A DNA stretch of 64,000 bases from Gammaproteobacteria bacterium (GCA_021731365.1 JAKFXL010000018.1:940-64939); one strand, 5' to 3'; counted from the first letter of the stretch, positions 12,141 through 50,679 are shown. Notes: generated from the letters alone by a model not told the origin. Program-made: numbers and translations.

Positions 12141-13496
12141 TTATAGCTGTGCGTATGCAAGCTCAACCTGCCGGGCCAGATACTCAGCACATTGGCGCAC
12201 CAACTCACCACTTTGGCCTTCTACCATCACCCTAATCACTGGCTCGGTACCCGATGCCCGCAATAAAACACGGCCATTGCCGCTGAGCCGCAGGTCTATC
12301 TCTCGCAACGCATCACTCACAATAACCGACTTGGCATAATCAAACGGACGTTCTGTACGGACATTGATCAGGGTTTGTGGGTATTTTTCCATTCCGGACT
12401 TTAATTCGCTCAAAGATTTACCTGACTCGACCACGGCAGCCAGCACCTGTAACGCAGCAACTATACCGTCCCCCGTGGTCGCATGGTCCAGACAAATAAT
12501 ATGGCCAGATGACTCCCCACCCAATGCCAAATCGCCTTGCCGCAACAAATCCATTACATAGCGATCCCCTACCGCAGCACGATGCAACTCAATGCCTAAC
12601 GTTCCCAGGGCATGCTCAAGCCCCAGGTTACTCATCACCGTCCCCACCACTCCTCGTTTGAATCCGGGACGCCCCATTCTGGCGACCGCTATGATAAAAA
12701 GCAGCTCATCACCGTCGAGCACCTCTCCTTTATGATCAACCATAATCAGCCGGTCACCATCACCGTCAAGCGCAATGCCCAAATCAGCGCGGTGATGAAC
12801 AACCGCTACCTGCAACAACTCTGGGTGAGTCGATCCACAGTTGTCATTAATATTTAAACCATTTGGCTCGGCACCAATGGAAATTACTTCCGCGCCCAAC
12901 TCTTCAAGCACCAACGGGGCCATCCCGTACGTGGCACCATTCGCACAATCCACCACTATTTTGAAGCCGCTAAAGGAGAGTCGCGATGGAATGGTACTCT
13001 TGCAAAACTCTATGTACCGGCCTGCCGCATCCACAACCCGTTCTGCCTTACCCAAGGCATCCGGTGCCACCGTCTCCATCGGCTTATCTAGCTCTGCTTC
13101 AATAGCAAGCTCAATGTCATCAGGCAGCTTGGTACCATCCCCGGAGAAAAACTTTATCCCATTATCGTAATAGGGGTTATGGGAGGCGCTGATGACAATA
13201 CCTGCGTCCGCACGAAACGTACGTGTAAGATAAGCCACCCCCGGCGTTGGCATCGGCCCCAGCAACAATATATCCACACCCGCCGCAGATAGCCCTGCCT
13301 CCAATGCGGATTCAAACATATAGCCGGAGATGCGGGTATCTTTACCTATCAACACCCTGCTCTGCCTGCCTTTGCCTTGTGCCAATACACGACCAGCCGC
13401 CCAGCCGAGCTTCATCACAAATTCTGGCGTAATAGGATATTGCCCCACCTTTCCACGCACACCGTCAGTACCGAAGTATTTTCTTTTCCCCGACAT
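12141..13496 (-). CDS. glmM: phosphoglucosamine mutase
   Basis: [18 protein letters not shown]..., active-site ..ISASHNP.., full-length GlmM homolog. The track start at 13502 is a GTG two codons upstream. Confidence 0.93.
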
Positions 13497-23529: not shown

Positions 23530-26500
23530 CTACTGCCAATTGGCGGTAATCACCGGGGTCAGTGCCGCGTCATATTCAGGTGACAACGACGTCTGCCCAG
23601 CAGCAGGCGGGGCAAATGAAGCCATCGCACTCACCAGATTCTCTACCCGGGTATCCAGTAATGTTTTGCCATCAGCGGTCGTAAACTCCTCAATTCGATA
23701 AGCATTACCAGAATACCAATTACTGATGGTGCTTCTATCACTCGTCCCAATAATACTGACTTCTAAATCAGAACCCATCCGGCGGAACCAAAGCTGATTA
23801 ATATCAACGCCGCCCCCAACTGATAACCGATCGCTGTTACCAAGAGTAGTATCGTAATCGTTAATGACATCAGCACTCGAACCACGTCCAAACAGGTAGG
23901 TGTCGTTGCCAGTGCCACCGTTGAGGGTGTCGTTGTCGGCACCACCGTTGAGGATGTCATTGCCTGCCCCGCCGTTGAGGGTGTCCATGCCTGCGCCGCC
24001 CAGTAGGGTATCGTTGCCGGCATTGCCGTTGAGGCTGTCGTTACCAATACCACCATCGATCTGGTCGGCCAGCGCACCCCCATAGAGATAGTCGTTACCG
24101 TCGAGGCCGAAGATGCGGTTGGTACCATCGTTGTAGCCGCTGATCGAGTCACCGTTCACAGTGCCGTTGGTGATGACGCGGGCCTTGATGGCGGCTTCGT
24201 CCCAGGTGACGCCGTCGCTAAACTTGAACTGTTCAATCTTGTAACCGGGGTAGCCGGAGTTGAAGTATTCATTGACGGTCAGTTGGTCTGCCGTACCGTA
24301 TTTGATGACGAGGTGGTTGCCACTGCGTTCCAGCGCCGTCAGGGCGGTGGAGGCGACGTTGCTGAACTGGACGACGTCGCTGTTGCCGGCGGTGGTGTCG
24401 TAGTCGGTGATGGTGTCGACGCCCGACCCAAGGGCAAGCAGGTAGGTGTCGTTGCCTACGTCACCGTTGAGGGTGTCGTTGTCGGCACCGCCATTGAGGA
24501 TGTCATTGCCTGCCCCGCCATTGAGGATGTCGGTACCAGCACCGCCCAACAGGGTGTCGTTGCCGGCATTGCCGTTGAGGCTGTCGTTACCGTTGCCACC
24601 TTCGATCCAGTCAGCCAGCGCGCCACCGTAGAGATAGTCGTTACCGTCGAGGCCGAAGATGCGGTTGGTACCATCGTTGTAACCACTGATCGAGTCATTG
24701 CCTACGGTGCCGTTGGTGATGACGCGGGCCTTGATGGCGGCTTCGTCCCAGGTGACGCCGTCGCTAAACTTGAACTGTTCAATCTTGTAACCGGGGTAGC
24801 CGGAGTTGAAGTATTCATTGACAGTCAGTTGGTCTGCCGTACCGTATTTGATGACGAGGTGGTTGCCACTGCGTTCCAGCGCCGTCAGGGCGGTGGAGGC
24901 GACGTTGCTGAACTGGACGACGTCGCTGTTGCCGGTGGTGGTGTCGTAGTCGGTGATGGTGTCGACGCCCGACCCAAGGGCAAGCAGGTAGGTGTCGTTG
25001 CCTACGTCACCGTTGAGGGTGTCGTTGCCTGACCCGCCATCAAGAATGTCGTCGCCATTATCACCATTAAGATTGTCGTTACCATCGCCGCCAAACAGGG
25101 CATCCATACCCCCGCCACCATAAAGGGTGTCATTACCCGCCTGACCATCAATAAGATCATTGCCGTCACCAGCACTAAACACATTGCCAGAGGCATTACC
25201 CACAAACGCATCATCACCACTTGTTCCAGAAGTAGCCACTGCTGAAAGTGAATTAATCCCAGTGGCGACAAAAGCATTACGAACATCCTGTTCCGTCCCC
25301 CACCGTTGCTTCAACGAACGTAATTGCTCCGTACCATCCCATCCCATCTGGTTAAACCTCTCACCATAGATTCGATTCAGATCAAGGAACAGCGCCGCGC
25401 CTTCTTGAGTATTTGCGGCCATGGCCTCTGATACGCTTGCATTCAATCCATCAAACCCAACAGTAACGCCAGTGGCTGATATGTTCAGGTCAACCAAATC
25501 AAGATATTGCGACAGGCGTAGCGAAGGCATCAGGTTATTAGTGGCATCGTCAACCAGTCTGTCCCATAGATTTTCAAAATACGAGACGCCATTTGGCATG
25601 GGTGGAATGGTCACTCGAATGTAATCGTCATAGAGCAGCACACCATTGCGTTGTTCAGCTATTAATTGCGAAAGCGGCACCACAACTTCAACCGGCACTA
25701 ACCTCACCCCCTCTTCATAAACCGGCAAGCCAAGACGTGGGACATAGTGTGCGTCATTGTAGACCTGCCCCCAATCCAGAAAGGTGTGCCCCGTAAATGC
25801 CTCATAGGCATAAAGCTTTTCAAGTCCGCCCACCATGCGTTCACGCATGGCATCGAATTTACTGAGATCATCGGCCAACAATGTGGCCCGGAATGCGTTA
25901 CGGTCCACTTCGCTGGCTTTGATGCCCACATCCATCCAGCCACGCTCCTGGTCATCCAAAGGTCCACTCAGAATAAGACCATAGCCTGCGGCCAAAGCCT
26001 CTCTGCCAGCACTGAGGTATTCGGAACCATCGCCCCACTCACGCATTAATTGCTCAACAGAGGATTCAAACTCTGCCCGTGTTGGGGCATTTTTAGCCTG
26101 ATTAACCAAGGCGACCAAATCCGGATTGAGTGTTGCCGCCTCACGCAAATCTCGCACCCAACCGCTGCCATTAATATCCGGCAGCGCCATAGCTGCCTCG
26201 CCCACAATAACTGGGACGTACTCACGAATAGTGTCGTTTTGCGCAAACAGAAAACTGCCCGCCTGGCCACTACTACCATCGGTACGGGTAAAGGTGCTCT
26301 CTAGCACCATCACGGAGTCACCATAAACGGTACCGGATACACTGCTGTTGAGCTTTATGCTAGCAATGCCACTTGCCGCCAATGTCTGTAGTTCGTTTGC
26401 CTGACTAATACCGTCTTGATTCAGGTCGCGCCAAACGCGCACTTCTGAATAAAAATCATCCTGGGCATCAAAATTAAAATCAGGGTGACTGTTAAGTTGA

Positions 26501-27342
26501 GCCAACGCATCAAAACCATTACCTGCCTTTCGCCCATTAGACAACAACATCTCATCGCCAAAAATCTCAGCGCCTGAATCGATAATGCCGTTGCCATTAC
26601 GATCCCACACCAAAATGCCATCATCAGCGCCGGCCCAAGCGGTGGCTGTTTTTATGGTATCGCCGTTGGTGTCGAACATGACACCACTACTGAGCGGGGT
26701 GATCTCGATGCCATCGCCGTCCAGATCGAGGATCAATGGATCGCGGTAGGGAATGAGGCGGGTAATGGTGACCATGGGGTCAGGGGCGTTGATGATGGCG
26801 TCAGAGATGGCAGACCCACTTTGGGAGTCATTACTTGGCGGGCTATCGTTCCATGGCTTGCTTGGGTCAGTCGGATTTGCCCATCCTCCATCTGGAGGAT
26901 AAATCCTGTTCCCGTCTATGTCATAGTATTTATTTGTTGAAATATTAGTGCCTTCAGGCACTAGCTGCGATGGTCCTTGCGAAAATTCCTTCCCATCAGG
27001 GGAAACAGTAATGGTGGGTTGCCATATCATGCCAGGAGGTGGAGTTGTCTGATTTGCGGGAGCAAATCCAGGCACCCCATCGGCTTCAGCCGCCGCTTGT
27101 ATTCGCTGATTTGCTTCACGAATTTTTTCGCCCGTTGTTCTTAAGTCAGTTGCCCATGTGTCAACAATATCCCTTACTACATAGCCAACAGCGGGTGGCA
27201 TAAGGCGACTAGCCGCATCGAATATAGCATTCACGTACTCAACGGCCTGAAGTGGGTCACTTCTATTTTCAATGGCATCTCCCGCGTTAATTAAATCATG
27301 GATTATTTGATTGGTTTTATTTGCTGTCCCTAGTAATGACAT
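23530..27342 (-). CDS. large RTX-family calcium-binding protein, probable type I secretion substrate (1270 aa)
   Basis: Many GGxGxDxL/I nonapeptides (GGAGNDILNGGADNDTLNG...). The C-terminal region (..DVINDYDTTLGNSDRLSVGGGVDINQLWFRRMGSDLEVSI..SNWY..RIEEFTTADGKTL..) matches a T1SS C-terminal target domain. The N-terminal half has EF-hand-like loops (DLNQDGISQANE). It is adjacent to hlyD. Confidence 0.85.
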   Translation of the reverse strand: MSLLGTANKTNQIIHDLINAGDAIENRSDPLQAVEYVNAIFDAASRLMPPAVGYVVRDIVDTWATDLRTTGEKIREANQRIQAAAEADGVPGFAPANQTTPPPGMIWQPTITVSPDGKEFSQGPSQLVPEGTNISTNKYYDIDGNRIYPPDGGWANPTDPSKPWNDSPPSNDSQSGSAISDAIINAPDPMVTITRLIPYRDPLILDLDGDGIEITPLSSGVMFDTNGDTIKTATAWAGADDGILVWDRNGNGIIDSGAEIFGDEMLLSNGRKAGNGFDALAQLNSHPDFNFDAQDDFYSEVRVWRDLNQDGISQANELQTLAASGIASIKLNSSVSGTVYGDSVMVLESTFTRTDGSSGQAGSFLFAQNDTIREYVPVIVGEAAMALPDINGSGWVRDLREAATLNPDLVALVNQAKNAPTRAEFESSVEQLMREWGDGSEYLSAGREALAAGYGLILSGPLDDQERGWMDVGIKASEVDRNAFRATLLADDLSKFDAMRERMVGGLEKLYAYEAFTGHTFLDWGQVYNDAHYVPRLGLPVYEEGVRLVPVEVVVPLSQLIAEQRNGVLLYDDYIRVTIPPMPNGVSYFENLWDRLVDDATNNLMPSLRLSQYLDLVDLNISATGVTVGFDGLNASVSEAMAANTQEGAALFLDLNRIYGERFNQMGWDGTEQLRSLKQRWGTEQDVRNAFVATGINSLSAVATSGTSGDDAFVGNASGNVFSAGDGNDLIDGQAGNDTLYGGGGMDALFGGDGNDNLNGDNGDDILDGGSGNDTLNGDVGNDTYLLALGSGVDTITDYDTTTGNSDVVQFSNVASTALTALERSGNHLVIKYGTADQLTVNEYFNSGYPGYKIEQFKFSDGVTWDEAAIKARVITNGTVGNDSISGYNDGTNRIFGLDGNDYLYGGALADWIEGGNGNDSLNGNAGNDTLLGGAGTDILNGGAGNDILNGGADNDTLNGDVGNDTYLLALGSGVDTITDYDTTAGNSDVVQFSNVASTALTALERSGNHLVIKYGTADQLTVNEYFNSGYPGYKIEQFKFSDGVTWDEAAIKARVITNGTVNGDSISGYNDGTNRIFGLDGNDYLYGGALADQIDGGIGNDSLNGNAGNDTLLGGAGMDTLNGGAGNDILNGGADNDTLNGGTGNDTYLFGRGSSADVINDYDTTLGNSDRLSVGGGVDINQLWFRRMGSDLEVSIIGTSDRSTISNWYSGNAYRIEEFTTADGKTLLDTRVENLVSAMASFAPPAAGQTSLSPEYDAALTPVITANWQ
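23885..25026. repeat. tandem direct repeat, about 2.1 copies of a 546-bp unit (about 97-99% identity), inside the RTX gene
   Basis: 24241-24480 is nearly identical to 24787-25026 (2 mismatches in 240 nt), and 23885-24240 resembles 24431-24786. The unit encodes a 182-aa module (..DVGNDTYLLALGSGVDTITDYDTT.GNSDVVQFSNVASTALTALERSGNHLVIKYGTADQLTVNEYF..IEQFKFSDGVTWD.. plus RTX nonapeptides). Confidence 0.9.
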
Positions 27343-27410
27343 GGCATATCCTTTTTGGTTATTAAATAATTAATCTATGCAACATAAAAAATTTAATCCG
27401 CGAATGACTA

Positions 27411-27683
27411 TCATGGAACAGTCGGAGGATTAACCCAGTTTTCAGGAACTTTTATTATCAGCCTTTCAATAGAGCTCTGTTTACGCCTAACACAAGTAAA
27501 TATTTTTGATGTTATTTTAAGTTTTTCATTGTTGCTTAAATTGCTTTTATCACTGATCTTTTCTCTATCAATAGGACTCGCACACTTCAACGTTAAATAA
27601 CCCAATCTAACCACCACAATATAATCAAACCCGAAATATCCCGTTATGAGTAGCAATACGCCAATAATTAGTTTTTTATTCAT
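27411..27683 (-). CDS. small AT-rich membrane-anchored hypothetical protein (about 90 aa)
   Basis: ATG at 27683 (MNKKLIIGVLLLITGYFGFDYIVVV...), one N-terminal TM segment. Its codon composition is clearly AT-rich relative to its neighbours. It lies between the RTX gene and hlyD. Confidence 0.45.
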   Translation of the reverse strand: MNKKLIIGVLLLITGYFGFDYIVVVRLGYLTLKCASPIDREKISDKSNLSNNEKLKITSKIFTCVRRKQSSIERLIIKVPENWVNPPTVP

Positions 27684-27841
27684 GCCGACAATAACTCGTG
27701 CACACAAATAATCATAATAAATTTTCGTGGAATTCCATAATGTCCGCTCCCATAAAGATGAGCAGTAAAATTCACGCACGAAGCTGTTTTGAGATATCTC
27801 ATCAATTTATTCAAACTAACTTTATCTCTATTCAAACTCAT

Positions 27842-29185
27842 TTAACGTTCCCTCCCACTCTCATCCGCATACTGCATCAACGGGCTCAGCACATACTCAA
27901 TCAACTTTCTCTTACCTGTTTTAACCTCTACCGTCACTGACATACCAGGACTAAGATTAATCATCTTATCCTCTACACGAATGGTGTTCTGTTTTAGCAA
28001 AACTCTGGCAGTGTAGATCAACCCCAGTTTCTCATCGGCCACGGCGTCATTGGATACGTTGATCAGTTCTGCGTCAATGGCGCCGTATTTGGTGTAAGGA
28101 AAGGCATCCACCTTCACTTCTGCTATTTGTCCTTCACGCACAAAGCCGATGTCTCTGTTGACGATGATGGCTTCGACTTCAATGCCTTCGTCTTGGGGCA
28201 CAATAACCATCAGTTGTTGCGCCGGTGTGACGACGCCGCCGATGGTGTGCACCGCAAGTTGTTGCACGATGCCATCGACCGGGGCGGTGAGGCGCAGCAG
28301 TTGGTTGCGCTGGTCGGCTTTGATTGATTCCTGGTTTAATCCTTGGCCACGACGTTTGGCATCGGTGAGTTCGGCCAGGGCATTGTTGAGGGCGTTGGCC
28401 TCTTCTACTTTTCGTTGTTCTTTGAGTTGGGCGAGATTGGCAATGAGCTCCTGGCGGCGCTGTTTTTGGATGGCGAGGTCTTGGGTCTGTTCGATGCGTT
28501 GTTGTTCGAGTTCGAGATAGGTGTGGCGTGGGGCGAGCTGTTTGTCGGCGAGTGTTTTGAGTGATTCGGCGCGTTCGGTGATGATCGGCAGTGTGGCTGC
28601 GAGTTTTTTGATCTGCTCTTCGGTGCCGATGAGTTCGGCTTCACGACGCAGCTTTTCGTTATCCAGACTGCTTAGCGTGGCTTGATGCTGTTGCCACTGG
28701 CTGGCGAGCAGTTGCTTTTGCGGTTCGAGCACATCGATGCTGGTGGTGTTTGGCCAGTGGGCGATGGGGGCGGTGTGGCTTTGCATGGCGATGATGAGGG
28801 CAGTGGCGCGGGCGAGTTCTGCCTGGGCGGTGCTGTATTCGTTGCCGAGCCGGGTGGCATCGGCCTGGGTGCCGGTGGTGTCGAGGTCGATCAGTGGGTC
28901 ACCCTTTTTTACACTCTGTCCCTCGCGCACATGGATGACACTGACGCTGCCGATCTCCAGTGGTTGAATAATTTTGGTGCGGTCGCTGGGGATCACTTTT
29001 CCTTGGGCGGTGGCGACGATGTCGACCTTGCCGAAACAGGCCCAGAGGATGGCGATGGTAAACAGAATCACGATGCTCCAGGTGATGGCGCGACCGATGG
29101 GCGATGGTGGGGTCTCCTGGATCTCCAGTGCGGCGGGCAGGAATTGGAGTTCATGTTTGTTGCGTTCGATGGTTAGGTTTTGCAT
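27842..29185 (-). CDS. hlyD: type I secretion periplasmic adaptor (HlyD family)
   Basis: 447 aa: N-terminal TM (ITWSIVILFTIAILWACF), long coiled coil, and a C-terminal region (..APVDGIVQQLAVHTIGGVVTPAQQLMVIVPQD..LSPGMSVTVEVKTGKRKLIEYVLSPL) that tracks E. coli HlyD closely. Confidence 0.9.
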   Translation of the reverse strand: MQNLTIERNKHELQFLPAALEIQETPPSPIGRAITWSIVILFTIAILWACFGKVDIVATAQGKVIPSDRTKIIQPLEIGSVSVIHVREGQSVKKGDPLIDLDTTGTQADATRLGNEYSTAQAELARATALIIAMQSHTAPIAHWPNTTSIDVLEPQKQLLASQWQQHQATLSSLDNEKLRREAELIGTEEQIKKLAATLPIITERAESLKTLADKQLAPRHTYLELEQQRIEQTQDLAIQKQRRQELIANLAQLKEQRKVEEANALNNALAELTDAKRRGQGLNQESIKADQRNQLLRLTAPVDGIVQQLAVHTIGGVVTPAQQLMVIVPQDEGIEVEAIIVNRDIGFVREGQIAEVKVDAFPYTKYGAIDAELINVSNDAVADEKLGLIYTARVLLKQNTIRVEDKMINLSPGMSVTVEVKTGKRKLIEYVLSPLMQYADESGRER

Positions 29186-29187
29186 GG

Positions 29188-29760
29188 TTAGTTCACCACT
29201 GCCATGCCGTCGCGGGCATCGCCGCGCTGGTACTGATAGAGCTTGGCGTAGTGGCCATGCAGGTTGATAAGTTGGGCGTGGGTGCCCTCTTCGACAATCT
29301 GGCCATGATCTATCACGATGATTCGATCGGCATTGCGCACGGCGCTAAGGCGGTGGGCGATGATGAAGACGGTGCGGTCTTTACAGATGCGCTGCATGTT
29401 GTCTTGAATGATGCGTTCTGATTCGTAGTCGAGGGCGCTGGTGGCTTCATCAAAGATGAGGATGCGGGGGTTGCTGATAAGCGCCCTGGCGATGGCGATG
29501 CGTTGGCGCTGACCACCGGAGAGGTTGCTGCCGTGTTCACCGACCAGTGAGTCGTAACCTTCTGAGAGTTCAAGAATGAATTCATGGGCGCCTGCAAGTT
29601 TGGCGGCCTGGATGACACGCTCCATCGGCAGGCCGGGATCACTCAGGGCGATATTGGCACGCACGCTGCGGTTGAAGAGCACGTTCTCTTGCAGTACGAC
29701 GCCGACCTGCCTTCTTAACCAGGTGGGGTCGATCATGATTCTGCCACTTTCAGGGACCTA
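29188..29760 (-). pseudogene. hlyB: C-terminal remnant of a HlyB-type T1SS ABC exporter (part of the NBD only)
   Basis: ..[32 protein letters not shown]...[34 protein letters not shown].. equals the last roughly 185 residues of HlyB (signature, Walker B, H-loop). It is preceded in frame by a stop at 29758-29760. No Walker A or TMD lies upstream. Confidence 0.85.
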
Positions 29761-29822
29761 GAGAGATCGCACTAATTTGATACAGATATTCATATTTAAA
29801 GTGCACCAAGCTGACACCGGTC

Positions 29823-30323
29823 TTAATCTCTGTAGAATTTTATTTCTAAAATAACAACATCGTCAGAAACTCTATACGAAAAATAAAACTCTGAATACTC
29901 TTCTCCAGCCAGGTTGTGTCTATTCTTATCAGAAGAGATAGCTATTACATTTTTATTTAGCTCTTTTTTTACAACTTTAAGCTCTTCGCCATCTAAAGCC
30001 AGGTTCGCCAACTTTAAGAACTCTTTATTGACATTACTACTATCTAATTCCATATATGGCCCAAGAAATAGAAGCGCATGGGTTCCATAGTGATCACATG
30101 ACCAATGTTTTATCGAAAACATAGCACCATCATTTGTTATGCCCTTAACCTCTTTGGCACTATCCGCCCAAACAAACTTAGAAATCGCACTGTTTTTCTC
30201 ATACCTATCCTTTGTAAAGCTGCCCTCATCAAACACACAGCTTGACTGCTGTGCACATGCCGTGCTTGACAGAACCAGAACCACCAATCCAAAAAAAACA
30301 CATCTTTCACGAAAAATTCTCAT
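29823..30323 (-). CDS. hypothetical secreted protein (166 aa), AT-rich, carried on the insert within hlyB
   Basis: N-terminal signal peptide (MRIFRERCVFFGLVVLVLSSTACAQQ). By eye the region is about 35-40% GC against a background of about 55%. No recognisable domain. Confidence 0.55.
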   Translation of the reverse strand: MRIFRERCVFFGLVVLVLSSTACAQQSSCVFDEGSFTKDRYEKNSAISKFVWADSAKEVKGITNDGAMFSIKHWSCDHYGTHALLFLGPYMELDSSNVNKEFLKLANLALDGEELKVVKKELNKNVIAISSDKNRHNLAGEEYSEFYFSYRVSDDVVILEIKFYRD

Positions 30324-30338
30324 GTGACTTTTCTCATT

Positions 30339-30836
30339 CTAGGGCTGAGGTATCTCTACGTGATAGGCTGGATCCGCAGGTGGAGTTAAAAACTTTGACA
30401 CCCTTGCATCACCATTTACGGCGGATTCGAATTTCTTTCTCAATGCTAAATTTATACTACTCGGCGCAATATCTACAACGTTAATCTTCTTGGGATCACC
30501 AACGTGTAGGGAAACATTTCCTGGACCAATATTAGTTATCTTCACACTCATGCCATTGATAATGTCAGCCACGGATTTTCCTTGTGATTTGAGCAAGGAA
30601 TACTCGTCTATCACTTTGTCTCCATAGGAACTATATAACCTTTTCTGATGAAGAACACCATGGCGCTCGATATTTTCATACATGATTCGAGCTTGATCAT
30701 ATACGGTACGCGCGGTACTGGTCACTGTAATCAGCGGAACGCCAGCCTTTTTCATAATGTCTTCCAGCACTTTTTTACTATAGGCTGATACTTTCGACGA
30801 ATCTCTAGCTGGATCCAGATATTTTATCAATGGCAT
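30339..30836 (-). CDS. hypothetical protein (about 165 aa), AT-rich, carried on the insert within hlyB
   Basis: Likely start is MPLIKYLDPARDSS.. (the track ORF starts 12 codons earlier). It is cytoplasmic-type and contains ..ITVTSTARTVYDQA.. and ..SLHVGDPKKINVVDIAP... These faintly resemble LAS/M15-type peptidase motifs, but that is not established. Confidence 0.5.
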   Translation of the reverse strand: MPLIKYLDPARDSSKVSAYSKKVLEDIMKKAGVPLITVTSTARTVYDQARIMYENIERHGVLHQKRLYSSYGDKVIDEYSLLKSQGKSVADIINGMSVKITNIGPGNVSLHVGDPKKINVVDIAPSSINLALRKKFESAVNGDARVSKFLTPPADPAYHVEIPQP

Positions 30837-30889
30837 GTCAAATTCCCCTTTATTGAATCTCGCTGCAACCAAGCTTACGCCTGATCAAA

Positions 30890-31424
30890 GTAGAAAAACC
30901 CTCATACATCAATACCTCGACCACACTATCGATAACAAAAAAGCCCGCAGCGCTTCACCAAAGAGTTTGTGGTGTTTATATCGCAGGGATAAACCTCTTG
31001 AAATCGAATTTTCGATCACCATTCAACAGACTGGCGCGTTTGGTGATCAGGATCAATTCACCTGACCACTGTTTTTCAAACTCTTCCCGTGGGAGAACCT
31101 TCGGGCGCTGTTCGAGTGGATCTTGAATCAGGACAGAGGCACCTCTTTAAGACCACCAACAATAAAATAGTGGCCATCAGTGTGGCGGGCAATAGCGGGG
31201 AGTTGAATGCGTTCGAGACGAGAGATATCCGATTTAATCTGCCGGGCCTTGAGGCCAAGCAGTTTGGTGGCACGGAGGATTTCGGTCGGGCCGAAGTGCT
31301 GTTCGGTCTGGCCAAACTGGTGGCGTAGCTGATCGGCCTCTGCGGCAACACCGTGAAAGCGGGCAAGGATCACCAGGCAGGTTAGGCCTGTGTCAGGCCC
31401 AACAACATCCTTGTTGTTATCCAT
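30890..31424 (-). pseudogene. hlyB: N-terminal remnant of a HlyB-type T1SS ABC exporter (C39-like domain plus start of TMD), with frameshifts and stops
   Basis: The 98-aa ORF 31128..31424 (MDNNKDVVGPDTGLTCLVILARFHGVAAEADQLRHQFG..LRATKLLGLKARQIKSDISRLERIQLPAIARHTDGHYFIVGGL) matches the HlyB N-terminal C39-like domain. Homology continues in other frames with stops (..RPKVLPREEFEKQWSGELILITKRASLLNGDRKFDFKRFIPAI*, ..KHHKLFGEALRAFLLSIVW.., ..VLMYEGFSTL..), roughly up to HlyB residue 190. Confidence 0.8.
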
Positions 31425-31669
31425 TCATCCAACCCTACAGATTTTTATTTTGTCGTCACCATCAAGCTTGTGGCACACGCGACCGCAACTGGCGACAGTT
31501 TTTTGCCTATGTTAGCCGTAGACCTGCTATCTGGGCAAATAAAATATAGGGGAGAGGCAAACGTCGGGGGGGCAGGTAATGGTTTTACGTCTAATGGGGG
31601 GGCTGAATAGCCGCACACCCAAAGCCCGCCATGAGCAGCGGGCGGATGTAGCGCGGCCCTAAAGGTTGG

Positions 31670-32494
<825 letters not shown>

Positions 32495-41523: not shown

Positions 41524-41578
41524 ATCATCGCTGGCCGGGAACCTCCCGGTCAGATACAATGATCCACTTGAACCAAAG

Positions 41579-41937
41579 GGGGCGATCTGGCTTCGACGTG
41601 GATTGCGAAACCCAAGGTGCATGCCGAGGTGTAGGTCCCCTCGTAAAACAATCTACAAACTTATAGTTGCCAACGAAGACAACTACGCACTCGCTGCTTA
41701 ATACCCAGTAGGGTGCCCTCGGCCCAAGTCTGTGCTTGTGCACTTGGTAACCGGGGTCGACTCACACAAGCTCGCGATGAAGTTAGTCTGGCACCGATTC
41801 GTTAAATTCTTACAGACTCGCTGTTTGTCTTCCCTGCCAATCGGGTAGCATGCAGTTAAATTAATAGATTGGATAAGCATGTAGAGCTGAAGGCAGAGGA
41901 TTTGCGGACGCGGGTTCGATTCCCGCCGCCTCCACCA
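41579..41937 (+). ncRNA. ssrA: transfer-messenger RNA (tmRNA, SsrA)
   Basis: Starts GGGGCGATCTGGCTTCGACGTGGATTGCGAAACCCAAGGTGCATGCCGAGG, which parallels E. coli ssrA. The tag reading frame is GCC AAC GAA GAC AAC TAC GCA CTC GCT GCT TAA (ANEDNYALAA). The 3' end is tRNA-like: GGACGCGGGTTCGATTCCCGCCGCCTCCACCA. Confidence 0.95.
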
Positions 41938-41980
41938 CTTAACAGGTTTGCTGATTACCACGGCAAACCACTAGAAATTG

Positions 41981-42012
41981 GCCTGTTACGAAAGTTTCAG
42001 GCTATTTTTTTG
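41981..42012 (+). terminator. putative rho-independent terminator after ssrA
   Basis: GCCTGTTACGAAAGTTTCAGGC hairpin (5-bp GC stem) followed by TATTTTTTTGTCTTT. Confidence 0.5.
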
Positions 42013-42141
42013 TCTTTGATTCCCTATTGTCATCTCTTGTTATTCGTTTTACAGCCCCCTACTTATCAATCGCAACATGTATCCCTTAAGCCCTCTGCAT
42101 TACAAAGCATGGAGCATGTAAATAGGGTAAGAGACCACCTC

Positions 42142-45100
42142 TCACCGCACCGGCATATCGCCACTGAACTTCAACAGATCAAACACAATCCGGGCGAAGT
42201 TGGCCGCCTTGGTTGGATCAGAGAGCAGCTGCATCATCTGATTTTGCTGTGCTTCGCTGCTGTCCAGCACCGCATCATCAATCGCCTTATTAAAGTCACC
42301 CAACAGCGCCTGTTCAGTTGTGTTGTTGGCCATCTGCTTCATTACCCGTTGGTTTTCACTCACTTTATCGCGGATGGTGTAGGCGTAGTTCACCATGTCT
42401 TTCTCTGATAAATGATCGGTGATAAATACCTCATTCAGACGGCTGATGATCTGGGAAAGAAATTCTTCTTTTTTATCTTTTGCCTTGGCAGTGCCTAAGC
42501 CATCGCCAGGCACTAAATACTCGTCCGCATCTTCTCGTAAGTTCAGATCCTGCTGACGGATTTTTGCCAGGCGGTAGTGACTGAGCGCGATGTTATCCAG
42601 ATCGATGTCATCTTCATCCATAATCGTCTCACGTAACATCGGCCGCAGGTTACGGGCGTAGAGGCTGAGCTTCTCCAGGTTTTTGTCATCGTAATCGACA
42701 ATCTGTGACATAAATTCATAGAAGCGCACAAAGGTGCCCAAATCTTTCTTGAAAATCTCCAGCGCATCCTTCTCCTGCTTACACTCCTTAAGGCTGTTTT
42801 CAGCATTGGCCAGCAATACCGCATCACCTGTTTTCTTGGTCCGATCAAACATCTCCTTGGCATATTTAAACGCATCAATGGCCGACTTATAACGCTTCTG
42901 CCAACGCTCGACCGCCGGTTTGCAAATATTGGCAATGGCGGCGTTGCTTTTGTTACGCACAAAAAATGCTGCGCAAAACTGCTCCACCTCATGCCACAGA
43001 AATATTCCGCTTGCTCGCAGCTTGTCGTAGAGATCAAAAATCAGATCCGGATCACTCACATCATCCAGCTCGGCGGTTTGGTAATAGGGTTGGAACGCCG
43101 CCAGAATTTCATCCGGTTCATTGAAGAAGTCCAGCACAAAGGTGCCAGTCTCGGCCTTCCCGAGATAGGTACGATTGAGGCGCGACAGCGTCTGTACACA
43201 CTCCACACCGCCCAGTTTTTTATCCACATACATGGCGCAGAGTTTGGGTTGATCAAAGCCGGTCTGGAATTTATTGGCAACGATCATCACCTGATAATCC
43301 TCAGAGTCAAAGGCCTTGCGCAGGTCACGACCCTTGAGGTTGGGATTCATATTGCTCTCGGTAAACTTCACGCCCAACAGCCCCTCACTATTAGGATCAC
43401 GTTCGTCAAATTCCACCTCACCCGAAAAGGCCACCATCGCATGAATCTTATGGTAGCCCTGCTGCGTGATGTATTTATCAAAACCCAGCTTGTACCGCAC
43501 CGCCTCCTTGCGTGAACTGGCCACCACCATCGCCTTGGCCTGTCCGCCCAGCAGCCCCATCACATTGTGTTTAAAGTGCTCCACAATCACCTGCACCTTC
43601 TGCGCGATGTTGTAGTCGTGCAGCCGCACCCACTGGTTGAGTTTCACCTTCGCCCTCTTACTCTCCACCTCCTGATCACCTGCCTCGATATTCAGCGCCA
43701 GCTGGTAGGCCACCTTGTAGTTGGTGTAGTTTTTGAGCACATCAAGGATGAATCCCTCCTCGATTGCCTGCCTCATGCTGTAAACGTGATAGGAGACCGG
43801 CTTATTGGTTTTTGAGGCCGGCAAGGTTGGATCAGGCAGACGACCAAACAGCTCCAGCGTCTTGGTCTTGGGTGTAGCGGTAAAGGCAAAATAGCTCAGA
43901 TTGGGTGACGCACGGCGGCTGGCCACCGCCGCATCGAGAATATCCTCCGAACTCAGCTCCGCCTCATCATCGCCTTTGGCGTCCACCATCAACACCTCTT
44001 TCAACTGCCGGGCGGTGGAACCACTTTGTGATGAGTGCGCCTCGTCGGCAATAATGGCGTAGTGGCGTGTTTTCAAACTCACACTGTTCTCGATCGCCTG
44101 CAATACAAACGGAAAGGTCTGAATGGTAACGATGATAATCGGCTGCGAACTCTCCAGCGCCGCCGCCAACTTCTCCGACTTGGAGCCATCGCCCTCACTG
44201 TTATTGATGCGCCCCACCACACCATCTACATGCTCGAACTGGTAGATGGTCTCCTGCAACTGCGCATCCAGCACCGTGCGGTCGGTAATAATAATCACCG
44301 AATCAAACTGCTTGTGGCCCGCCTGATCATAGAGCGATGAGAGCTGATGCGCCGTCCAGGCGATGGAGTTGGATTTGCCCGAACCGGCACTGTGTTGGAT
44401 CAGATATTTATGCCCCGGCCCTTCACTGCGCGCCGCCCCCACCAGCTTATTCACCACATCCCACTGGTGATAACGGGGGAAGATCAGCGACTCTTTTTTA
44501 TACTTGCGCCCCTCCCAAGTCTCGCGCTCCTCAATTTGCAAATGGACAAAACGGGCCAGAATCTTCAACAGATTATTCGGCAGCAGCACCTCATTCCACA
44601 GATAGTCCGTGGCGTATTGATTCACATCCTCCGGCACATCGTTACCAGCACCACCGCCAGCAGTGCCCTTGTTAAACGGCAGGAAACGAGACTCCTCCCC
44701 CTCCAGCCGTGTTGCCATGTAGACCTCATACTGGCTCACCGCAAAATGCACCAGCGCACCACGTTTAAAAGTGAGTAACGGTTCCGGTTTTTTAGTCACA
44801 GGGTCAACCGCCAGGCGCGTGGTTTTGTACTGTTTGATGGCGTTGTGCACCGCCTGTTTGAATTCCGACTTCAGCTCCAGCGTCGCCACCGGCAGGCCAT
44901 TTACAAACAGCACCAGATCGATACGCCACGTCTTTGCCCGGCTACCACTCTCGGCCAGATGTGCCTCCGTCGCCCACGGGCTATAGACCAGCTCCGGCAC
45001 CACCCGCAGGCGGTTCTGCTGGTAACGCGCCAACGTATCGGGGTTCAAATCATGTTCGGGTTTGAATTGACACAGACTAAAACGGGTACCGCGATCACGC

Positions 45101-45405
45101 AGCTCATGGCGCAACAGACCCAGCGTGCCAAAGGTGCGCAGCTCTTTATTGGCCGCATTGGGATCGGCCTTATTCAGCTGTGAGGCGACACGTTCCAGAA
45201 ACGTCTGTTCGGGATTGTTGGGATAAAGGGCGCAAAACTTCTGCCACTGCGCATCCTGCGACTCTTTTACAAAACCGAGCAGGTCGTCAGGGTACAACGC
45301 CAATTCACGATTGTAGTTTTCCGGTTTACCCAACAGCCAGCCATTGGCCAACAGCTGTTGAATGATGTCGTCCTGAAATACTCGCTCAATCGCCTTATCA
45401 ACCAT
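42142..45405 (-). CDS. hsdR: type I restriction enzyme R subunit
   Basis: 1087 aa; N-terminal ..WRIDLVLFVNGLPVATLELKSE.. nuclease motif, SF2 helicase motifs (..HSAGSGKSNSIAW.., ..IIADEAHSSQ..), and a typical HsdR C-terminus. Confidence 0.93.
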   Translation of the reverse strand: MVDKAIERVFQDDIIQQLLANGWLLGKPENYNRELALYPDDLLGFVKESQDAQWQKFCALYPNNPEQTFLERVASQLNKADPNAANKELRTFGTLGLLRHELRDRGTRFSLCQFKPEHDLNPDTLARYQQNRLRVVPELVYSPWATEAHLAESGSRAKTWRIDLVLFVNGLPVATLELKSEFKQAVHNAIKQYKTTRLAVDPVTKKPEPLLTFKRGALVHFAVSQYEVYMATRLEGEESRFLPFNKGTAGGGAGNDVPEDVNQYATDYLWNEVLLPNNLLKILARFVHLQIEERETWEGRKYKKESLIFPRYHQWDVVNKLVGAARSEGPGHKYLIQHSAGSGKSNSIAWTAHQLSSLYDQAGHKQFDSVIIITDRTVLDAQLQETIYQFEHVDGVVGRINNSEGDGSKSEKLAAALESSQPIIIVTIQTFPFVLQAIENSVSLKTRHYAIIADEAHSSQSGSTARQLKEVLMVDAKGDDEAELSSEDILDAAVASRRASPNLSYFAFTATPKTKTLELFGRLPDPTLPASKTNKPVSYHVYSMRQAIEEGFILDVLKNYTNYKVAYQLALNIEAGDQEVESKRAKVKLNQWVRLHDYNIAQKVQVIVEHFKHNVMGLLGGQAKAMVVASSRKEAVRYKLGFDKYITQQGYHKIHAMVAFSGEVEFDERDPNSEGLLGVKFTESNMNPNLKGRDLRKAFDSEDYQVMIVANKFQTGFDQPKLCAMYVDKKLGGVECVQTLSRLNRTYLGKAETGTFVLDFFNEPDEILAAFQPYYQTAELDDVSDPDLIFDLYDKLRASGIFLWHEVEQFCAAFFVRNKSNAAIANICKPAVERWQKRYKSAIDAFKYAKEMFDRTKKTGDAVLLANAENSLKECKQEKDALEIFKKDLGTFVRFYEFMSQIVDYDDKNLEKLSLYARNLRPMLRETIMDEDDIDLDNIALSHYRLAKIRQQDLNLREDADEYLVPGDGLGTAKAKDKKEEFLSQIISRLNEVFITDHLSEKDMVNYAYTIRDKVSENQRVMKQMANNTTEQALLGDFNKAIDDAVLDSSEAQQNQMMQLLSDPTKAANFARIVFDLLKFSGDMPVR

Positions 45406-45409
45406 CCGC

Positions 45410-46330
45410 CTACTCCCCCACCCCTAATAACGCCTCAAGCCCGGCAATCGCTGCGGCATGTTTTTTCTTATCCATTCGTTGCAGGTTATGCAACTTCCAC
45501 TTAATCGCTGGGAGATGCTCAACACCCTGCAAACCCAGCAACGGCCACTCAGGCGCACATTTTTTAAACGACAACAGAAAGCATCGTTCTTCTGCAGTCA
45601 GTGATGTAGCGAGCTGTTCTATCAATGCCTCTCGCACTGCCAGCAGCTCTACAAGGCCAACCTCAAGCTCCGCCATATTCGAGAACTCACCATGATAGAG
45701 ATCAGCAATCTCTTTGCGCGCCGGATTTAACAGCTCTGTCAACGGGCGGTTATGGCTAATCAGATAGACAATGACCGCCTTGCGCAGATCACTACTGATT
45801 CCCTCATTTTCCAGCAGCAGTTTGACATCAAAGAGATCCCTCGGGTGTTGGCGATCAAGTGCAGCACATATCTTCCCCGCATAAAGATCGGGCAACGAGA
45901 CAAGCGCCATCTCAACATAACCGAACTCATCTTCTACTTTTTCTGTTACCGCTCGTCTCTCCACATCGAACACCGTGCCACGCAACACAGGTGAAAGTTC
46001 GATTTTTATCTGCACACCGGCACGCTGAACAATCAACCGCAACGCATCGCTTTTATCATCGAAGGCCTTATGAATAGAGGTGCTGGGGAGCGCACGTGTA
46101 ATCTGCAGGCTTATTTCAAGAAGTGCCGCCTTAATCTCCGCCAGCGCCTCATCCCGCTCACTCACAGGCAAATAGATCAGATCGATATCCACCGACAATC
46201 TGGGCAGATCACGTATGAACAGGTTAATCGCCGTCCCGCCCTTTAAGGCAAAGCAACGCTGCTGCGCCACCATCGGCAGCGTCTGAACCAGCAACTGAAC
46301 TTGCCGGTAGTAGCTGCTCTGCCTATCCAT
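45410..46330 (-). CDS. nucleotidyltransferase, AbiEii/DUF1814-like toxin component
   Basis: 306 aa with ..FALKGGTAINLFIRDLPRLSVDIDLIY.. (GG..N....D.D nucleotidyltransferase-fold motif typical of AbiEii/AbiGii). It is paired with the upstream AbiEi-like gene, with a 4-nt overlap. Confidence 0.65.
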   Translation of the reverse strand: MDRQSSYYRQVQLLVQTLPMVAQQRCFALKGGTAINLFIRDLPRLSVDIDLIYLPVSERDEALAEIKAALLEISLQITRALPSTSIHKAFDDKSDALRLIVQRAGVQIKIELSPVLRGTVFDVERRAVTEKVEDEFGYVEMALVSLPDLYAGKICAALDRQHPRDLFDVKLLLENEGISSDLRKAVIVYLISHNRPLTELLNPARKEIADLYHGEFSNMAELEVGLVELLAVREALIEQLATSLTAEERCFLLSFKKCAPEWPLLGLQGVEHLPAIKWKLHNLQRMDKKKHAAAIAGLEALLGVGE

Positions 46331-47126
46331 GCATATGTGCCGGTACAGTGATTTGATACTTCCCGTCCAGCTTGCCCCCTTTACACAACACCCGTTTACC
46401 CGCGCCGAAGTTAACCCGCTCAGCGTTCAGCTTGTTCAACCAGGCATAGCCATGGCGCTCAGCCAGCCAAAAGAACAAGCGACTCACTTTTACACTCTGA
46501 CAATGCTCAAGCAAAAACTGAAGCCTGCGTGGCGACAAACTGGTAAGCCCCTGCATGATCTCATCCGCATGTTCAAAAGAGACCTTCTCAGGCACATCCG
46601 CCAACAGTTCAAGATAGGCGCGCTCAGTGGCAGACAACAGCAACACCGGCAGATCTTCACGCCACAGATGAGTAACAACCAGCTTCTCATCCGCAGCCAA
46701 CTCATCCCATGCCGCCATCGAGGTGTGCCAGACAAACTCAACCTCCAGTGGCAGCCTGTTGAGCCATGATGGTGCCTTCACCTGCGAATAAAGATGCACC
46801 GTTTTTTTAGCCGAAACGGAGAGATAGTGCCCCAACCCCAGCAGCTCCAGCGCCGTAACCCCGCCCACCAGAACCGGAACAGCCATCATCCGTTGTAAGG
46901 AGCAGACCACCCCTTGCCAGGTCAGCAGTACATTCGCCTTGCTATAGACCCCACTTGTTACCGCCACCAGCTGCCCGCTTTTAACGTGGTTATCCAGCGT
47001 ATGGCGGCTAAAGCCCTGCTCCAATAACCACTTTTTGCTGGCGATCAGTCCGTGGGGCAGCCACCTCTCCAACATCTCCGACTGCTCTTTTTTTGCGCTC
47101 ATTGGTTTAACTATCCAAATATCCAC
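46323..47126 (-). CDS. AbiEi-like antitoxin / transcriptional regulator (type IV TA)
   Basis: 267 aa. The N-terminal region (..HGLIASKKWLLEQGFSRHTLDNHVKSGQLVAVTSGVYS..) resembles the AbiEi wHTH domain. It is located directly upstream of, and overlapping, the DUF1814 gene. Confidence 0.55.
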   Translation of the reverse strand: MDIWIVKPMSAKKEQSEMLERWLPHGLIASKKWLLEQGFSRHTLDNHVKSGQLVAVTSGVYSKANVLLTWQGVVCSLQRMMAVPVLVGGVTALELLGLGHYLSVSAKKTVHLYSQVKAPSWLNRLPLEVEFVWHTSMAAWDELAADEKLVVTHLWREDLPVLLLSATERAYLELLADVPEKVSFEHADEIMQGLTSLSPRRLQFLLEHCQSVKVSRLFFWLAERHGYAWLNKLNAERVNFGAGKRVLCKGGKLDGKYQITVPAHMHG

Positions 47127-47299
47127 GGCGCTATTCGCCGCATATCTTTATTATACTAAACCATAGTGCAAAAATAGACGGTTTACAATACCTGTTTTTT
47201 ACGGCAGCAGACACCGCATTATCCGTGGAATATAAACCCAGCCAATCCCATCACCTGCGACCTTGCAGACACGCGGGATGTGGCGGAGGACGGAGCGCT

Positions 47300-47445
47300 G
47301 GTTTTATGTGGCGCTTGCCTGGTTTCCACGGTCCTCCGTGGGCTTGTGCCCGATCTGGGGGTAAATCCATACCTCACTTCACTCATCACCCTCCGTCTGC
47401 ATTCCCATACCCACAGGGCACAAGCGCCGGAGCGTGGGAACGAAA
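47300..47445. repeat. hairpin-rich palindromic repeat element, locus A (about 1 unit)
   Basis: GGTTTCCACGGTCCTCCGTGGGCTTGTGCCC...CATACC.CACTTCACTCATCACCCTCCGTCTGCATTCCCATACCCACAGGGCACAAGCGCCGGAGCGTGGGAACGA. It shares the CCCACGGTCCTCCGTGGG and TTCCCAC...GTGGGAA hairpins with loci B and C. Confidence 0.8.
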
Positions 47446-47498
47446 GAAATTTTCAACACACACTGATCAAGCCTGTTTATATACAGTGCTTAACAACG

Positions 47499-48243
47499 CT
47501 ACGTTACAGGCAATCGGATAAATGCACGGGCAATATGAAGTAAACGATTTTTCCGTGCTACCTCAACACCCTCACGACTACCGGCACTGTTGGTATTCCC
47601 CTCTATAGAGGTAAATGAATTACCCTGCGCCGACTCAACAATGCCGATATGCGAAAAGGTGAACACCACAATATCACCCTTGCGAGGCCGGTACAGCTCA
47701 CTTTTAGCATTAAAAACAATACACTTTTTGCGTCTTGGCCCAAATATTTAAAAAACGATTTACTGACGCCTCACGAGGTGCTGTCACCCCATGAAAACTA
47801 GAAGACTGTTTTATCAACAGTTGAGTACAGTGAGATACAAATGCCGCGCACCACGGATACCCATCCGTCGTCGTCGGGGTTAACTTAAGATCATCTGCGG
47901 AAAAAATCTCTTGTAGACTTTTAGATGTGCCAGCACGATTATCCCACGTCTCCCTAACACCAATATACTTCGCCGCAATATCAGCCAGAACACTCTGAGC
48001 TGAATTGACTGACGTAGTGTTGGTAACCGGCTTAGCGGAGATCAAATGTGCATTAGTCGCTGGACCAACCACACCATCCACAGCAATACCAGCACTCATC
48101 TGAAACTGCTTTACAGCTTTTTCAGTAGCTTGACCAAAACTACCATCAACAACCATTGGCGGTGACAGCTTAAGCAGCCCATTCAAAAGTACTTGCAACT
48201 TTTTAACAGCCTCTCCTCTCATTCCCCTTTTTAATATTGCCAC
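47499..48243 (-). pseudogene. peptidoglycan-binding-domain / TIGR02594-like cell-wall hydrolase gene, apparently frameshifted
   Basis: The 177-aa ORF 47710..48243 has a PG_binding_1-like N-terminus (..LKRGMRGEAVKKLQVLLN..VDGSFGQATEKAVKQFQ..GIAVDGVVGPATNAHL) and ..GYPWCAAFVSHC... The family C-terminus (..AKSELYRPRKGDIVVFTFSHIGIVESAQGNSFTSIEGNTNSAGSREGVEVARKNR..) continues in another frame, down to a stop near 47499. The shift lies near the A/T homopolymers around 47700-47715. Confidence 0.6.
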
Positions 48244-48258
48244 AGTTGACTCCTAATC

Positions 48259-48741
48259 CTATTTATTCGCGCTGTAGAGCATCCATAAATCACCGGGGAT
48301 GCCTTCAACCTCACTGTGATTTTCCAAAATCAGCAATCCATCATTCGTCGCAGAACCGGTTATACCCGGCCCTTGAAATTGATGATCATCAATACAGGTA
48401 ATCGAGTATGTTTTTTCTGATATTGGCAATCCCGGCTCATTGAAGCTACGGCTAAGCTGCCATGTTTTATTTTTTTGAACCAAATTTACACTGGAAACTG
48501 CGCCACCCATTTCAATACGGTAAACCCCAGCAGCCATTACTTTGGCCACCTTAAAAGTGGAAAAAGAGACAACGTCAGTCCCCACCAACACATCATCGAT
48601 CTGAGCGCCTTCATTTGTAGGGTTGCACACCACAGCCTGAGGAGCACTCAATGCCACTATCGGTGACTCAAGTTCAGAGGAACATCCCGATACCAGAGCA
48701 AGACCCAACAGCATCGAACACAAATATCCACACCGTCTCAT
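48259..48741 (-). CDS. hypothetical lipoprotein (160 aa)
   Basis: MRRCGYLCSMLLGLALVSGC (lipobox L-V-S-G-C). It lies directly upstream of the hydrolase gene on the same strand. No recognisable domain. Confidence 0.6.
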   Translation of the reverse strand: MRRCGYLCSMLLGLALVSGCSSELESPIVALSAPQAVVCNPTNEGAQIDDVLVGTDVVSFSTFKVAKVMAAGVYRIEMGGAVSSVNLVQKNKTWQLSRSFNEPGLPISEKTYSITCIDDHQFQGPGITGSATNDGLLILENHSEVEGIPGDLWMLYSANK

Positions 48742-48828
48742 AAAACACTCCCAACAACGCCAATACTGTTCATAACAGCTCCTATAAAATCCTAATAGAG
48801 ATCAAAAAACCAATACCAACGAAGAGTA

Positions 48829-50664: not shown

Positions 50665-50679
50665 CCACAACCCCTCTCA

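Follow-up and report, generated by a model that had tools for sequence, protein, structure and literature searches.

What becomes of a type I secretion system (T1SS) when the gene for its exporter is broken up inside its operon, and can a piece of that gene stay in use? The question is raised by the hlyB-hlyD-RTX locus in a 64,000-nucleotide (64-kb) stretch of DNA from Gammaproteobacteria bacterium (GCA_021731365.1, JAKFXL010000018.1:940-64939), referred to throughout as the window, whose host is a Candidatus Tenderia-like gammaproteobacterium. The locus lies on the minus strand and all its coordinates are those of the window. Taken as a whole, the explanation that we consider quite likely is that hlyB has been replaced in its middle by an effector-immunity module and has retained its tail as an open reading frame (ORF). 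Read along the minus strand, the gene order is dnaK, dnaJ, dapB, an hlyB N-terminal fragment, two AT-rich ORFs, an hlyB C-terminal fragment (hlyB_C), hlyD, a small AT-rich ORF, the RTX gene, carA and carB.

A foreign two-gene module in place of the middle of hlyB

A scan of species-representative genomes with HlyD returned two close relatives, L001 (92% HlyD identity) and L002 (86%), both Candidatus Tenderia metagenome-assembled genomes (MAGs). L032 (GCA_947085515.1) was added as a third through a look-up with the truncated product of ORF165, one of the two inserted genes, and the 800-codon ORF upstream of hlyD in L004 served as an intact HlyB homologue. The features of the locus on which the argument rests are the following.

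31128-31424, minus strand: hlyB N-terminal fragment, an ORF of 98 amino acids (aa) with a C39-like domain (Pfam Peptidase_C39, 5.6e-16)
30979-31146, minus strand: continuation of the C39-like domain in a second frame (tblastn with residues 120-175 of L004 HlyB, frame -2)
30885-30978, minus strand: decayed remnant of the linker and first transmembrane helix (TM1), KHHKLFGEALRAFLLSI / VIDSVVEVLMYEGFSTL (DNA alignment to L002)
29765-30884, minus strand: foreign AT-rich cassette in place of ~970 bp of hlyB (GC content; no homology to hlyB of L002 or L004)
30339-30836, minus strand: ORF165 (ATG at 30836), a protein with a LAS/M15-like zinc-peptidase fold and no signal peptide, putatively a peptidoglycan-targeting toxin
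29823-30323, minus strand: ORF166, a small protein with a Sec signal (..LSSTACA|QQ) and two conserved Cys, the putative cognate immunity protein
29737-29764, minus strand: right junction stub with the hlyB codons VPESGRI and a TAG directly before them (aligns to L002 GTCCCCGAAAGTGGCAGAG)
29188-29736, minus strand: hlyB C-terminal ORF, 182 aa, with Q-loop, LSGGQ signature, Walker B, D-loop and H-loop and no Walker A
27842-29185, minus strand: hlyD, 447 aa, membrane-fusion adaptor, intact (Pfam HlyD_3, 2.4e-16; HlyD_D23; Biotin_lipoyl_2)
23530-27342, minus strand: RTX substrate gene, 1270 aa, intact (HemolysinCabind, 3.3e-42; HCBP_related, 1.2e-35)

A tblastn search of the window with L004 HlyB yielded only three high-scoring segment pairs, over residues 12-108, 120-175 and 543-734, and residues 176-542, which hold the transmembrane domain (TMD) and the start of the nucleotide-binding domain (NBD), found no match anywhere in the window. 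Compared with solved structures, the N-terminal fragment read through its frameshift (with the piece 31146-30979) corresponds to residues 8-147 of E. coli HlyB (PDB 7sgr/8dck, E=2.7e-22), and the C-terminal ORF with seven upstream codons to HlyB residues 535-705 of 707 (E=2.8e-71). GC content is 0.35-0.43 over ~29700-31050 and 0.55-0.60 in the flanks. Three- and four-way alignments place the left breakpoint at ~30884-30862, blurred by a TTGGT microhomology, and the right breakpoint at ~29780-29765, so that hlyB has lost ~970 bp (all six transmembrane helices and the Walker A region) and gained ~1.1 kb.

What is left at the 3′ end spans only positions 38-137 of the Pfam ABC_tran profile: the signature motif, Walker B, D-loop and H-loop (IIAHR) are present in the ORF at 29188-29736, the GxxGxGKS motif of L002 and L004 is absent from it, and it is not a complete NBD. 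The six-helix TMD of an HlyB-type exporter is likewise absent between the C39-like domain and the NBD, and in place of one continuous ORF of ~700 codons there are pieces of 98 and 182 aa and out-of-frame fragments. Lacking both TMD and P-loop, this hlyB is unable to encode an exporter. The locus resembles the E. coli HlyB-HlyD-TolC system (PDB 7sgr, 8dck) in its non-catalytic C39-like domain (Thr stands at the catalytic Cys position), in the C-terminal part of the NBD, in hlyD directly downstream and in the RTX gene within the operon; unlike E. coli HlyB, its hlyB has no TMD and no Walker A and consists of at least four frame pieces around foreign DNA.

These results bear out much of the sequence-only reading of the locus. 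It had described an hlyB of which only the two ends survive on either side of foreign AT-rich DNA, on which Pfam, tblastn and the GC profile agree, and a replacement of similar length instead of a simple insertion. The assignment of both pieces to the two ends of HlyB, the C-terminal piece with signature, Walker B and H-loop and without Walker A, the loss of the TMD with the start of the NBD, and the intactness of hlyD and the 1270-aa RTX gene (both with the expected Pfam domains) likewise hold, and the protein-to-DNA alignment of HlyB that it proposed is what showed which residues have no counterpart in the window.

The cassette consists of two co-oriented ORFs with flanks of ~50 bp each. It contains no transposase, integrase or other mobility gene, and its ends carry no terminal inverted repeats; their sole repeat is an imperfect 14-bp direct repeat (30881-30868 / 29818-29805), which is missing from other copies of the gene pair, and the 3′ tail forms no significant hairpin (z=-0.6). 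The replacement is not private to the window genome. L001 and L032, which align colinearly with the window (91-92% identity across 8-10 kb), have the same architecture of N-fragment, 165/177-aa ORF, 166-aa ORF, 182-aa C-fragment and hlyD. The stub at 29737-29764 is 100% identical in the window, L001 and L032, and all three share an in-frame 24-bp deletion at 29738/29737. The identical junctions point to a single founding event, and the comparison shows that one illegitimate-recombination event swapped ~970 bp of hlyB for a two-gene module of 1.1 kb, acquired horizontally and oriented like hlyB itself, and that the resulting allele is old and common to at least three lineages.

L002 (GL96_UP_concoct_44) carries a full-length hlyB, colinear with residues 22-734 of L004 HlyB. 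It runs from 7636 to 9890 in three frames, with frameshifts near 8825 and 9604 and a 6-bp tandem duplication in the part that follows the signature motif, and is accompanied by an open hlyD of 444 aa. L002 thus represents the ancestral hlyB layout, and its exporter gene also appears to have undergone an inactivation of its own. The look at related strains that the sequence-only reading had proposed therefore gave a divided answer, since a full-length hlyB was found but is twice frameshifted, and the other two relatives share the replacement.

That the split gene could be an assembly chimera, or a set of stacked sequencing frameshifts in a gene that is in truth continuous, is suggested by the apparent origin of the window from a metagenome-assembled contig, and the sequence-only reading had named such an artefact as what would overturn it. 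We hold this to be extremely improbable. Contigs assembled independently from three Sequence Read Archive (SRA) runs (L023-L025) are 99.7-100% identical to the window over both junctions and the 10-bp deletion described below, the two MAGs from other studies (L001, L032) have the same junctions amid 4-10% divergence, and the artefact is excluded by these five assemblies; moreover, the ~970 bp of coding sequence are gone, not frameshifted.

The N-terminal C39-like piece is shown by the alignments to be decaying, and it is furthest gone in the window. A 10-bp deletion at 31142/31141, private to the window and not found in L001, L032 or L002, produces the 98-aa ORF by frameshift. The second-frame piece ends at the stop 30978-30976, which the window and L032 owe to a shared 2-bp deletion; at 30937/30936 a deletion of 41 bp is common to the window, L001 and L032, and a 9-bp insertion occurs in L001 only. 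Beyond these, a third decayed piece, VIDSVVEVLMYEGFSTL (~30936-30885), matches the TM1 region of full-length L002 hlyB at the DNA level, and the stretch downstream of the frameshift (31127-30980) has 73% identity between the window and L001. The sequence-only reading had left the small lesions (the 10-bp deletion, the stop, and the 41-bp and 24-bp deletions) unresolved.

Pseudogenisation of a secretion gene through foreign DNA is already a known kind of event. As in orphan effector-immunity islands and ordinary pseudogenisation, a small AT-rich module without mobility genes sits inside an accessory operon, and the 5′ remnant gathers frameshifts and stops. Unlike ordinary pseudogenisation, the change here is length-matched, co-oriented and confined to one gene, the allele is present in at least three diverged lineages, and the 3′ ORF appears strongly constrained. 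What is new is an in-gene, length-matched replacement allele common to at least three Tenderia lineages.

The inserted gene pair ORF165/ORF166

Homologues of ORF165 (n=119) are typically ~165 aa long; none belongs to a Pfam family, and one is fused to PG_binding_1. An alignment of 59 homologues is invariant at T39, S40, R43, Q48, S109, H111, D122, D155 and H159, and the AlphaFold2 model built from it (predicted local distance difference test, pLDDT, 94) has a predicted LAS fold (lysostaphin / D-Ala-D-Ala peptidase / hedgehog), which is common to MepA, VanX/VanY, LdcB and phage endolysins. The candidate zinc-ligand set H111/D122/H159 is invariant in the 59 homologues and in those linked to type VI secretion systems (T6SS), with an atypical H-x10-D spacing. 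Searches of ORF165 against Pfam, NCBIfam, PHROG and PADLOC, curated M15/M74 models included, gave no match, the profile of the family found chance matches only among PDB sequences, and Foldseek of the model against the PDB returned nothing significant.

Distant homologues with 31-32% identity come from a plasmid collection. One makes up the C-terminal domain of a LysM protein of 634 aa, whose gene lies just downstream of vgrG within a T6SS cluster of Scandinavium; in Rahnella, the distant homologue is the C-terminal domain of a protein encoded between two vgrG genes. Each is trailed by a small signal-peptide gene, and these T6SS-linked homologues retain S109, H111, D122 and H159. A partner of similar size also lies downstream of the ORF165 homologue in five of five other contexts (Pseudoalteromonas ruthenica, three other gammaproteobacterial contigs and an Acidobacteriota MAG). 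The partners in three of these (L026, L027, L029) are homologous to ORF166 at 40-52% identity, compared with 65-71% for the enzyme where an ORF165 homologue was identified. A hydrophobic leader at the N-terminus is missing from ORF165 and present in ORF166, as it is in the homologues of ORF166 from L026, L027 and L029. The occurrence of the same pair in unrelated contexts, from Pseudoalteromonas and other Gammaproteobacteria to Acidobacteriota, together with its low GC content, argues for a foreign origin of the insert. The sequence-only reading had spoken of two unrelated ORFs: they are indeed foreign to hlyB, but form a conserved and widely dispersed gene pair.

Fold, conserved residues, domain fusions and homologue neighbourhoods together suggest that the pair is probably an orphan peptidoglycan-peptidase effector with its periplasmic immunity protein. 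LAS/M15-like T6SS effectors with periplasmic immunity proteins are already known: Tpe14AB is a T6SS effector-immunity pair with LysM and Peptidase M15_3 (PMC6833914), and WHIX effectors have MepA-like or M15-like domains and signal-peptide immunity genes (PMC12135965). ORF165/ORF166 would resemble these pairs in the LAS-type fold, a conserved candidate His/Asp/His set and a signal peptide on the downstream partner only, and homologues of the ORF165 domain sit C-terminally on vgrG-adjacent LysM proteins. Unlike them, ORF165 is a stand-alone protein of 165 aa with no VgrG, PAAR, Hcp, MIX or WHIX linkage; unlike M15 peptidases, it has no Pfam M15 match and an H-to-D spacing of 10 residues instead of the usual 6. 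Acinetobacter baumannii Tae17 was considered as a relative and set aside as an architectural analogue only, its C-terminal domain being a CHAP amidase.

Two observations count against reading the pair as effector and immunity protein. The model of ORF166 (pLDDT 74.5) has no informative fold match, and its sequence has none in Pfam, NCBIfam, PHROGs or PADLOC; and no T6SS gene is found in the window or beside the stand-alone pairs, vgrG linkage being confined to the distant fused homologues of Scandinavium and Rahnella, so that no delivery route for ORF165 is indicated. The pair could instead be a cell-wall remodelling enzyme, housekeeping or accessory, with a periplasmic partner or regulator, or a phage-derived lysis module that landed in hlyB. 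Such a role would suit the LAS fold, shared as it is with MepA, VanX/VanY, LdcB and phage endolysins, the stand-alone pairs that adjoin no T6SS gene, a weak phage match and a copy in L063 that lies near a GH108 gene and a GTA-holin (gene transfer agent) gene. We regard it as unlikely, however: an enzyme without a signal peptide cannot reach the peptidoglycan of its own cell, the partner that does have one evolves faster than the enzyme, the domain occurs as C-terminal cargo of vgrG-adjacent proteins with signal-peptide genes after them, no PHROG family matches, and the pair turns up in varied core-gene neighbourhoods, like an accessory island.

In L032, a 2-bp deletion splits the putative toxin gene ORF165 into pieces of 45 and 91 aa (L032 4304-4799), and neither the putative immunity gene nor the hlyB C-fragment is damaged; a genome that has lost the toxin and kept the immunity protein would fit an effector-immunity pair. 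A functional link between the cassette and C39 was also considered, as the pair in the unrelated genome L029 (7488-8956) precedes a stand-alone 136-aa C39-like cysteine peptidase with a catalytic Cys, but this protein has no similarity to the N-fragment of the window and the proximity is taken to be coincidental. On the effector-immunity reading, what is new is a functional hypothesis for a 165-aa family without Pfam assignment and for its partner family.

Selection on the two ends of hlyB

The ratio of nonsynonymous to synonymous substitution rates (dN/dS) was estimated by the Nei-Gojobori method for pairs among the window, L001 and L032. It is 0.015-0.021 for dnaJ, 0.045-0.051 for dapB, 0.10-0.11 for hlyD and 0.21 for the RTX gene (window vs L032); within the cassette it is 0.11 for ORF165 (177-codon frame) and 0.06 for ORF166. 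Codons 1-93 of the hlyB N-fragment give 0.07-0.31, and hlyB_C gives 0.030-0.031 whichever two of the three genomes are compared. Across these pairs, so few nonsynonymous changes in hlyB_C would have a probability of 2e-13 to 5e-20 under neutrality; its differences between the window and L001 are 39 synonymous and 5 nonsynonymous. The dS of the cassette for the same two genomes (0.13-0.18) predicts ~60 nonsynonymous differences in a neutral hlyB_C, against the 5 observed. With L002 as the outgroup, the counts of synonymous (S) and nonsynonymous (N) changes are S=19/N=2 on the window branch and S=14/N=3 on that of L001; the L002 branch has S=27/N=16, the tree being unrooted and this branch including the stem to the cassette-bearing genomes. 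No indel and no stop occurs in hlyB_C of the three genomes (3 x 546 bp), whereas the adjacent N-terminal remnant, a region about as long, has undergone four indel events.

Judged by these substitution patterns, the comparison shows a 3′ ORF under apparent purifying selection as strong as that on dnaJ or dapB, beside a 5′ piece that decays. A selection signal on a half-NBD without a P-loop is new. In the sequence-only reading both pieces were remnants, which stands for the N-terminal piece; it does not fit a C-terminal ORF that is free of indels in three genomes and has a dN/dS of ~0.03. Purifying selection also acts on hlyD and the RTX gene, which the sequence-only reading had taken for an orphan adaptor and substrate, and this argues for their continued use.

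Several findings speak against a retained function of the tail. No clear Shine-Dalgarno sequence precedes the ATG of hlyB_C, and we know of no independent function for a half-NBD without P-loop. The locus is a mosaic: the window and L032 agree at 99.8-100% in the cassette and at 93-97% in hlyB_C, and the second quarter of hlyD is only 83.6% identical to L032 and 96.4% identical to L001. Within hlyD and hlyB_C, parsimony-informative sites that favour mutually incompatible groupings occur in clusters. Mosaic identity and conflicting sites together indicate that homologous recombination shuffles the locus, and strains whose hlyB is intact could have supplied the segments that give hlyB_C its low dN/dS. 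For the window and L001, identity is 95-97% in the cassette vs 89-93% in the flanks. The cassette allele may have spread between lineages that had already diverged, or its flanks may have been overwritten from other alleles.

Both pieces of hlyB would then be dead, and the signal on the C-terminal piece an artefact at the population level, produced by recent spread of the cassette into diverged alleles or by conversion tracts from strains with an intact hlyB. This account draws on the cassette being far less diverged than its flanks and on the clustered incompatible site patterns in hlyD and hlyB_C. It is also in keeping with the diverged N-terminal segment 31127-30980, whose differences are mostly synonymous in the L001 frame (S15/N9), as if derived from a functional allele, and with the dN/dS of 0.03 itself, a value for a fully functional NBD and not for a relaxed one. 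Several results, however, tell against it. Among 5.8 billion proteins searched with hlyB_C for a near-identical full-length HlyB, none exceeds 80% identity to the C-terminal piece; a metagenome scan with HlyD gave no close relative, its best full-length match being 50% identical and short fragments reaching 77%; and L002, the only full-length relative, is frameshifted and has the branch richer in nonsynonymous change, with the stem counted in that unrooted branch. Nor does it readily accommodate 5 nonsynonymous differences where the divergence of the cassette leads one to expect ~60, or a C-terminal piece free of indels next to an N-terminal remnant with four such events. We therefore think it somewhat unlikely that both pieces are dead.

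Retained protein-level constraint on hlyB_C, as read from these sequence comparisons, we put at slightly better than an even chance. The stop of hlyB_C lies 2 nt before the hlyD ATG, so the open frame may serve coupled translation of hlyD. Coupling alone would leave the amino-acid sequence unconstrained, which implies some protein-level role or interaction. A more specific proposal, possible but tentative, is that the 182-aa half-NBD is a translated protein with a function of its own, which may stabilise or regulate HlyD, or donate its signature motif to another ABC (ATP-binding cassette) ATPase that serves HlyD and the RTX protein.

Setting of the locus and its possible history

The T1SS island hlyB-hlyD-RTX (23530-31424) is placed between dapB and carA. 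These two genes are neighbours in many Gammaproteobacteria, so the island itself resembles an accessory insertion. Two further features belong to it.

31425-31669, minus strand: dapB-hlyB intergenic region, presumed promoter and leader of the operon
27411-27779, minus strand: AT-rich ORF of 122 codons (GC 0.34) in the interval between hlyD and the RTX gene, a second foreign-looking insert

The intergenic region is 97.5-98.8% identical across the window, L001 and L032, where the flanking genes have a dS of 0.2-0.7, and represents a regulatory region under strong conservation or else a tract that was recombined recently. An Rfam search of the locus, this region included, gave no match. The 122-codon ORF has an N-terminal hydrophobic segment and is present in L032 at 98% identity and in neither L001 nor L002; it is without match in Pfam, NCBIfam, PHROG and PADLOC. 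The L032 orthologue of the RTX gene is intact at 1238 aa. In L001, a second, partial hlyD 3′ end (12160-12406), 78.5% identical to window 28065-27819, lies ~800 bp downstream of the intact hlyD and is further evidence of rearrangement in the island. An exact look-up of the window HlyD gave no match. A "hemolysin D" entry in the metatranscriptome paper on Ca. Tenderia electrophaga lies beside a cation transporter and belongs to a different locus, and that paper makes no mention of the present system.

Elsewhere in the window, a tmRNA (transfer-messenger RNA) gene (41578-41937) is followed by a lower-GC defence island (region 41578-54992) with a type I restriction-modification system (hsdR 42142-45405, hsdS 51355-52674, hsdM 52671-54992), whose genes are interrupted by an AbiEii/AbiEi toxin-antitoxin pair (45410-47126) and by several ORFs without family match (49070-51030). 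Inside this island, at 47710-48741, a 160-aa lipoprotein (lipobox LVSGC) is followed by a 177-aa PG_binding_1 protein; the two may be a second peptidoglycan-directed toxin and immunity pair. Kinship with ORF165/ORF166 was considered and rejected, the sequences being unrelated.

The insert is co-oriented with its host genes and no terminator-like site is seen on the minus strand over 27300-31750; one transcript would thus probably run from the conserved region upstream through the module, the hlyB tail ORF, hlyD and the RTX gene. ORF165 would be made in the cytoplasm as a peptidase toxin domain, and ORF166 would act as a periplasmic immunity protein. The tail ORF would still be translated and would be retained for a protein-level reason tied to hlyD. 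As hlyD and the RTX gene are constrained and probably still used, an ABC partner and TolC are needed from outside the window, within whose 64 kb neither a second HlyB-type ABC gene nor an OEP/TolC gene was found; RTX export, if it still occurs, would proceed via an ABC partner encoded elsewhere.

If the half-NBD does have a function of its own, the operon would be a remodelled one, maintained across Tenderia lineages, in which a foreign toxin-immunity module has been domesticated. The replacement, by a module that carries no mobility genes, shows how orphan pairs can spread, by illegitimate and then by homologous recombination. For a hypothetical family of ~165 aa, also found on vgrG-linked effectors, the evidence suggests a reading as a LAS-type peptidoglycan-peptidase toxin, and gives it an immunity family. 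The signal on hlyB_C means either that part of an ABC ATPase can remain functional without the rest, or that a dead piece can take on the look of selection through recombination; the second would be a practical warning for anyone who calls pseudogenes in MAGs. From the constraint on hlyD and the RTX gene one would predict that an ABC partner acting in trans is encoded elsewhere in the genome.

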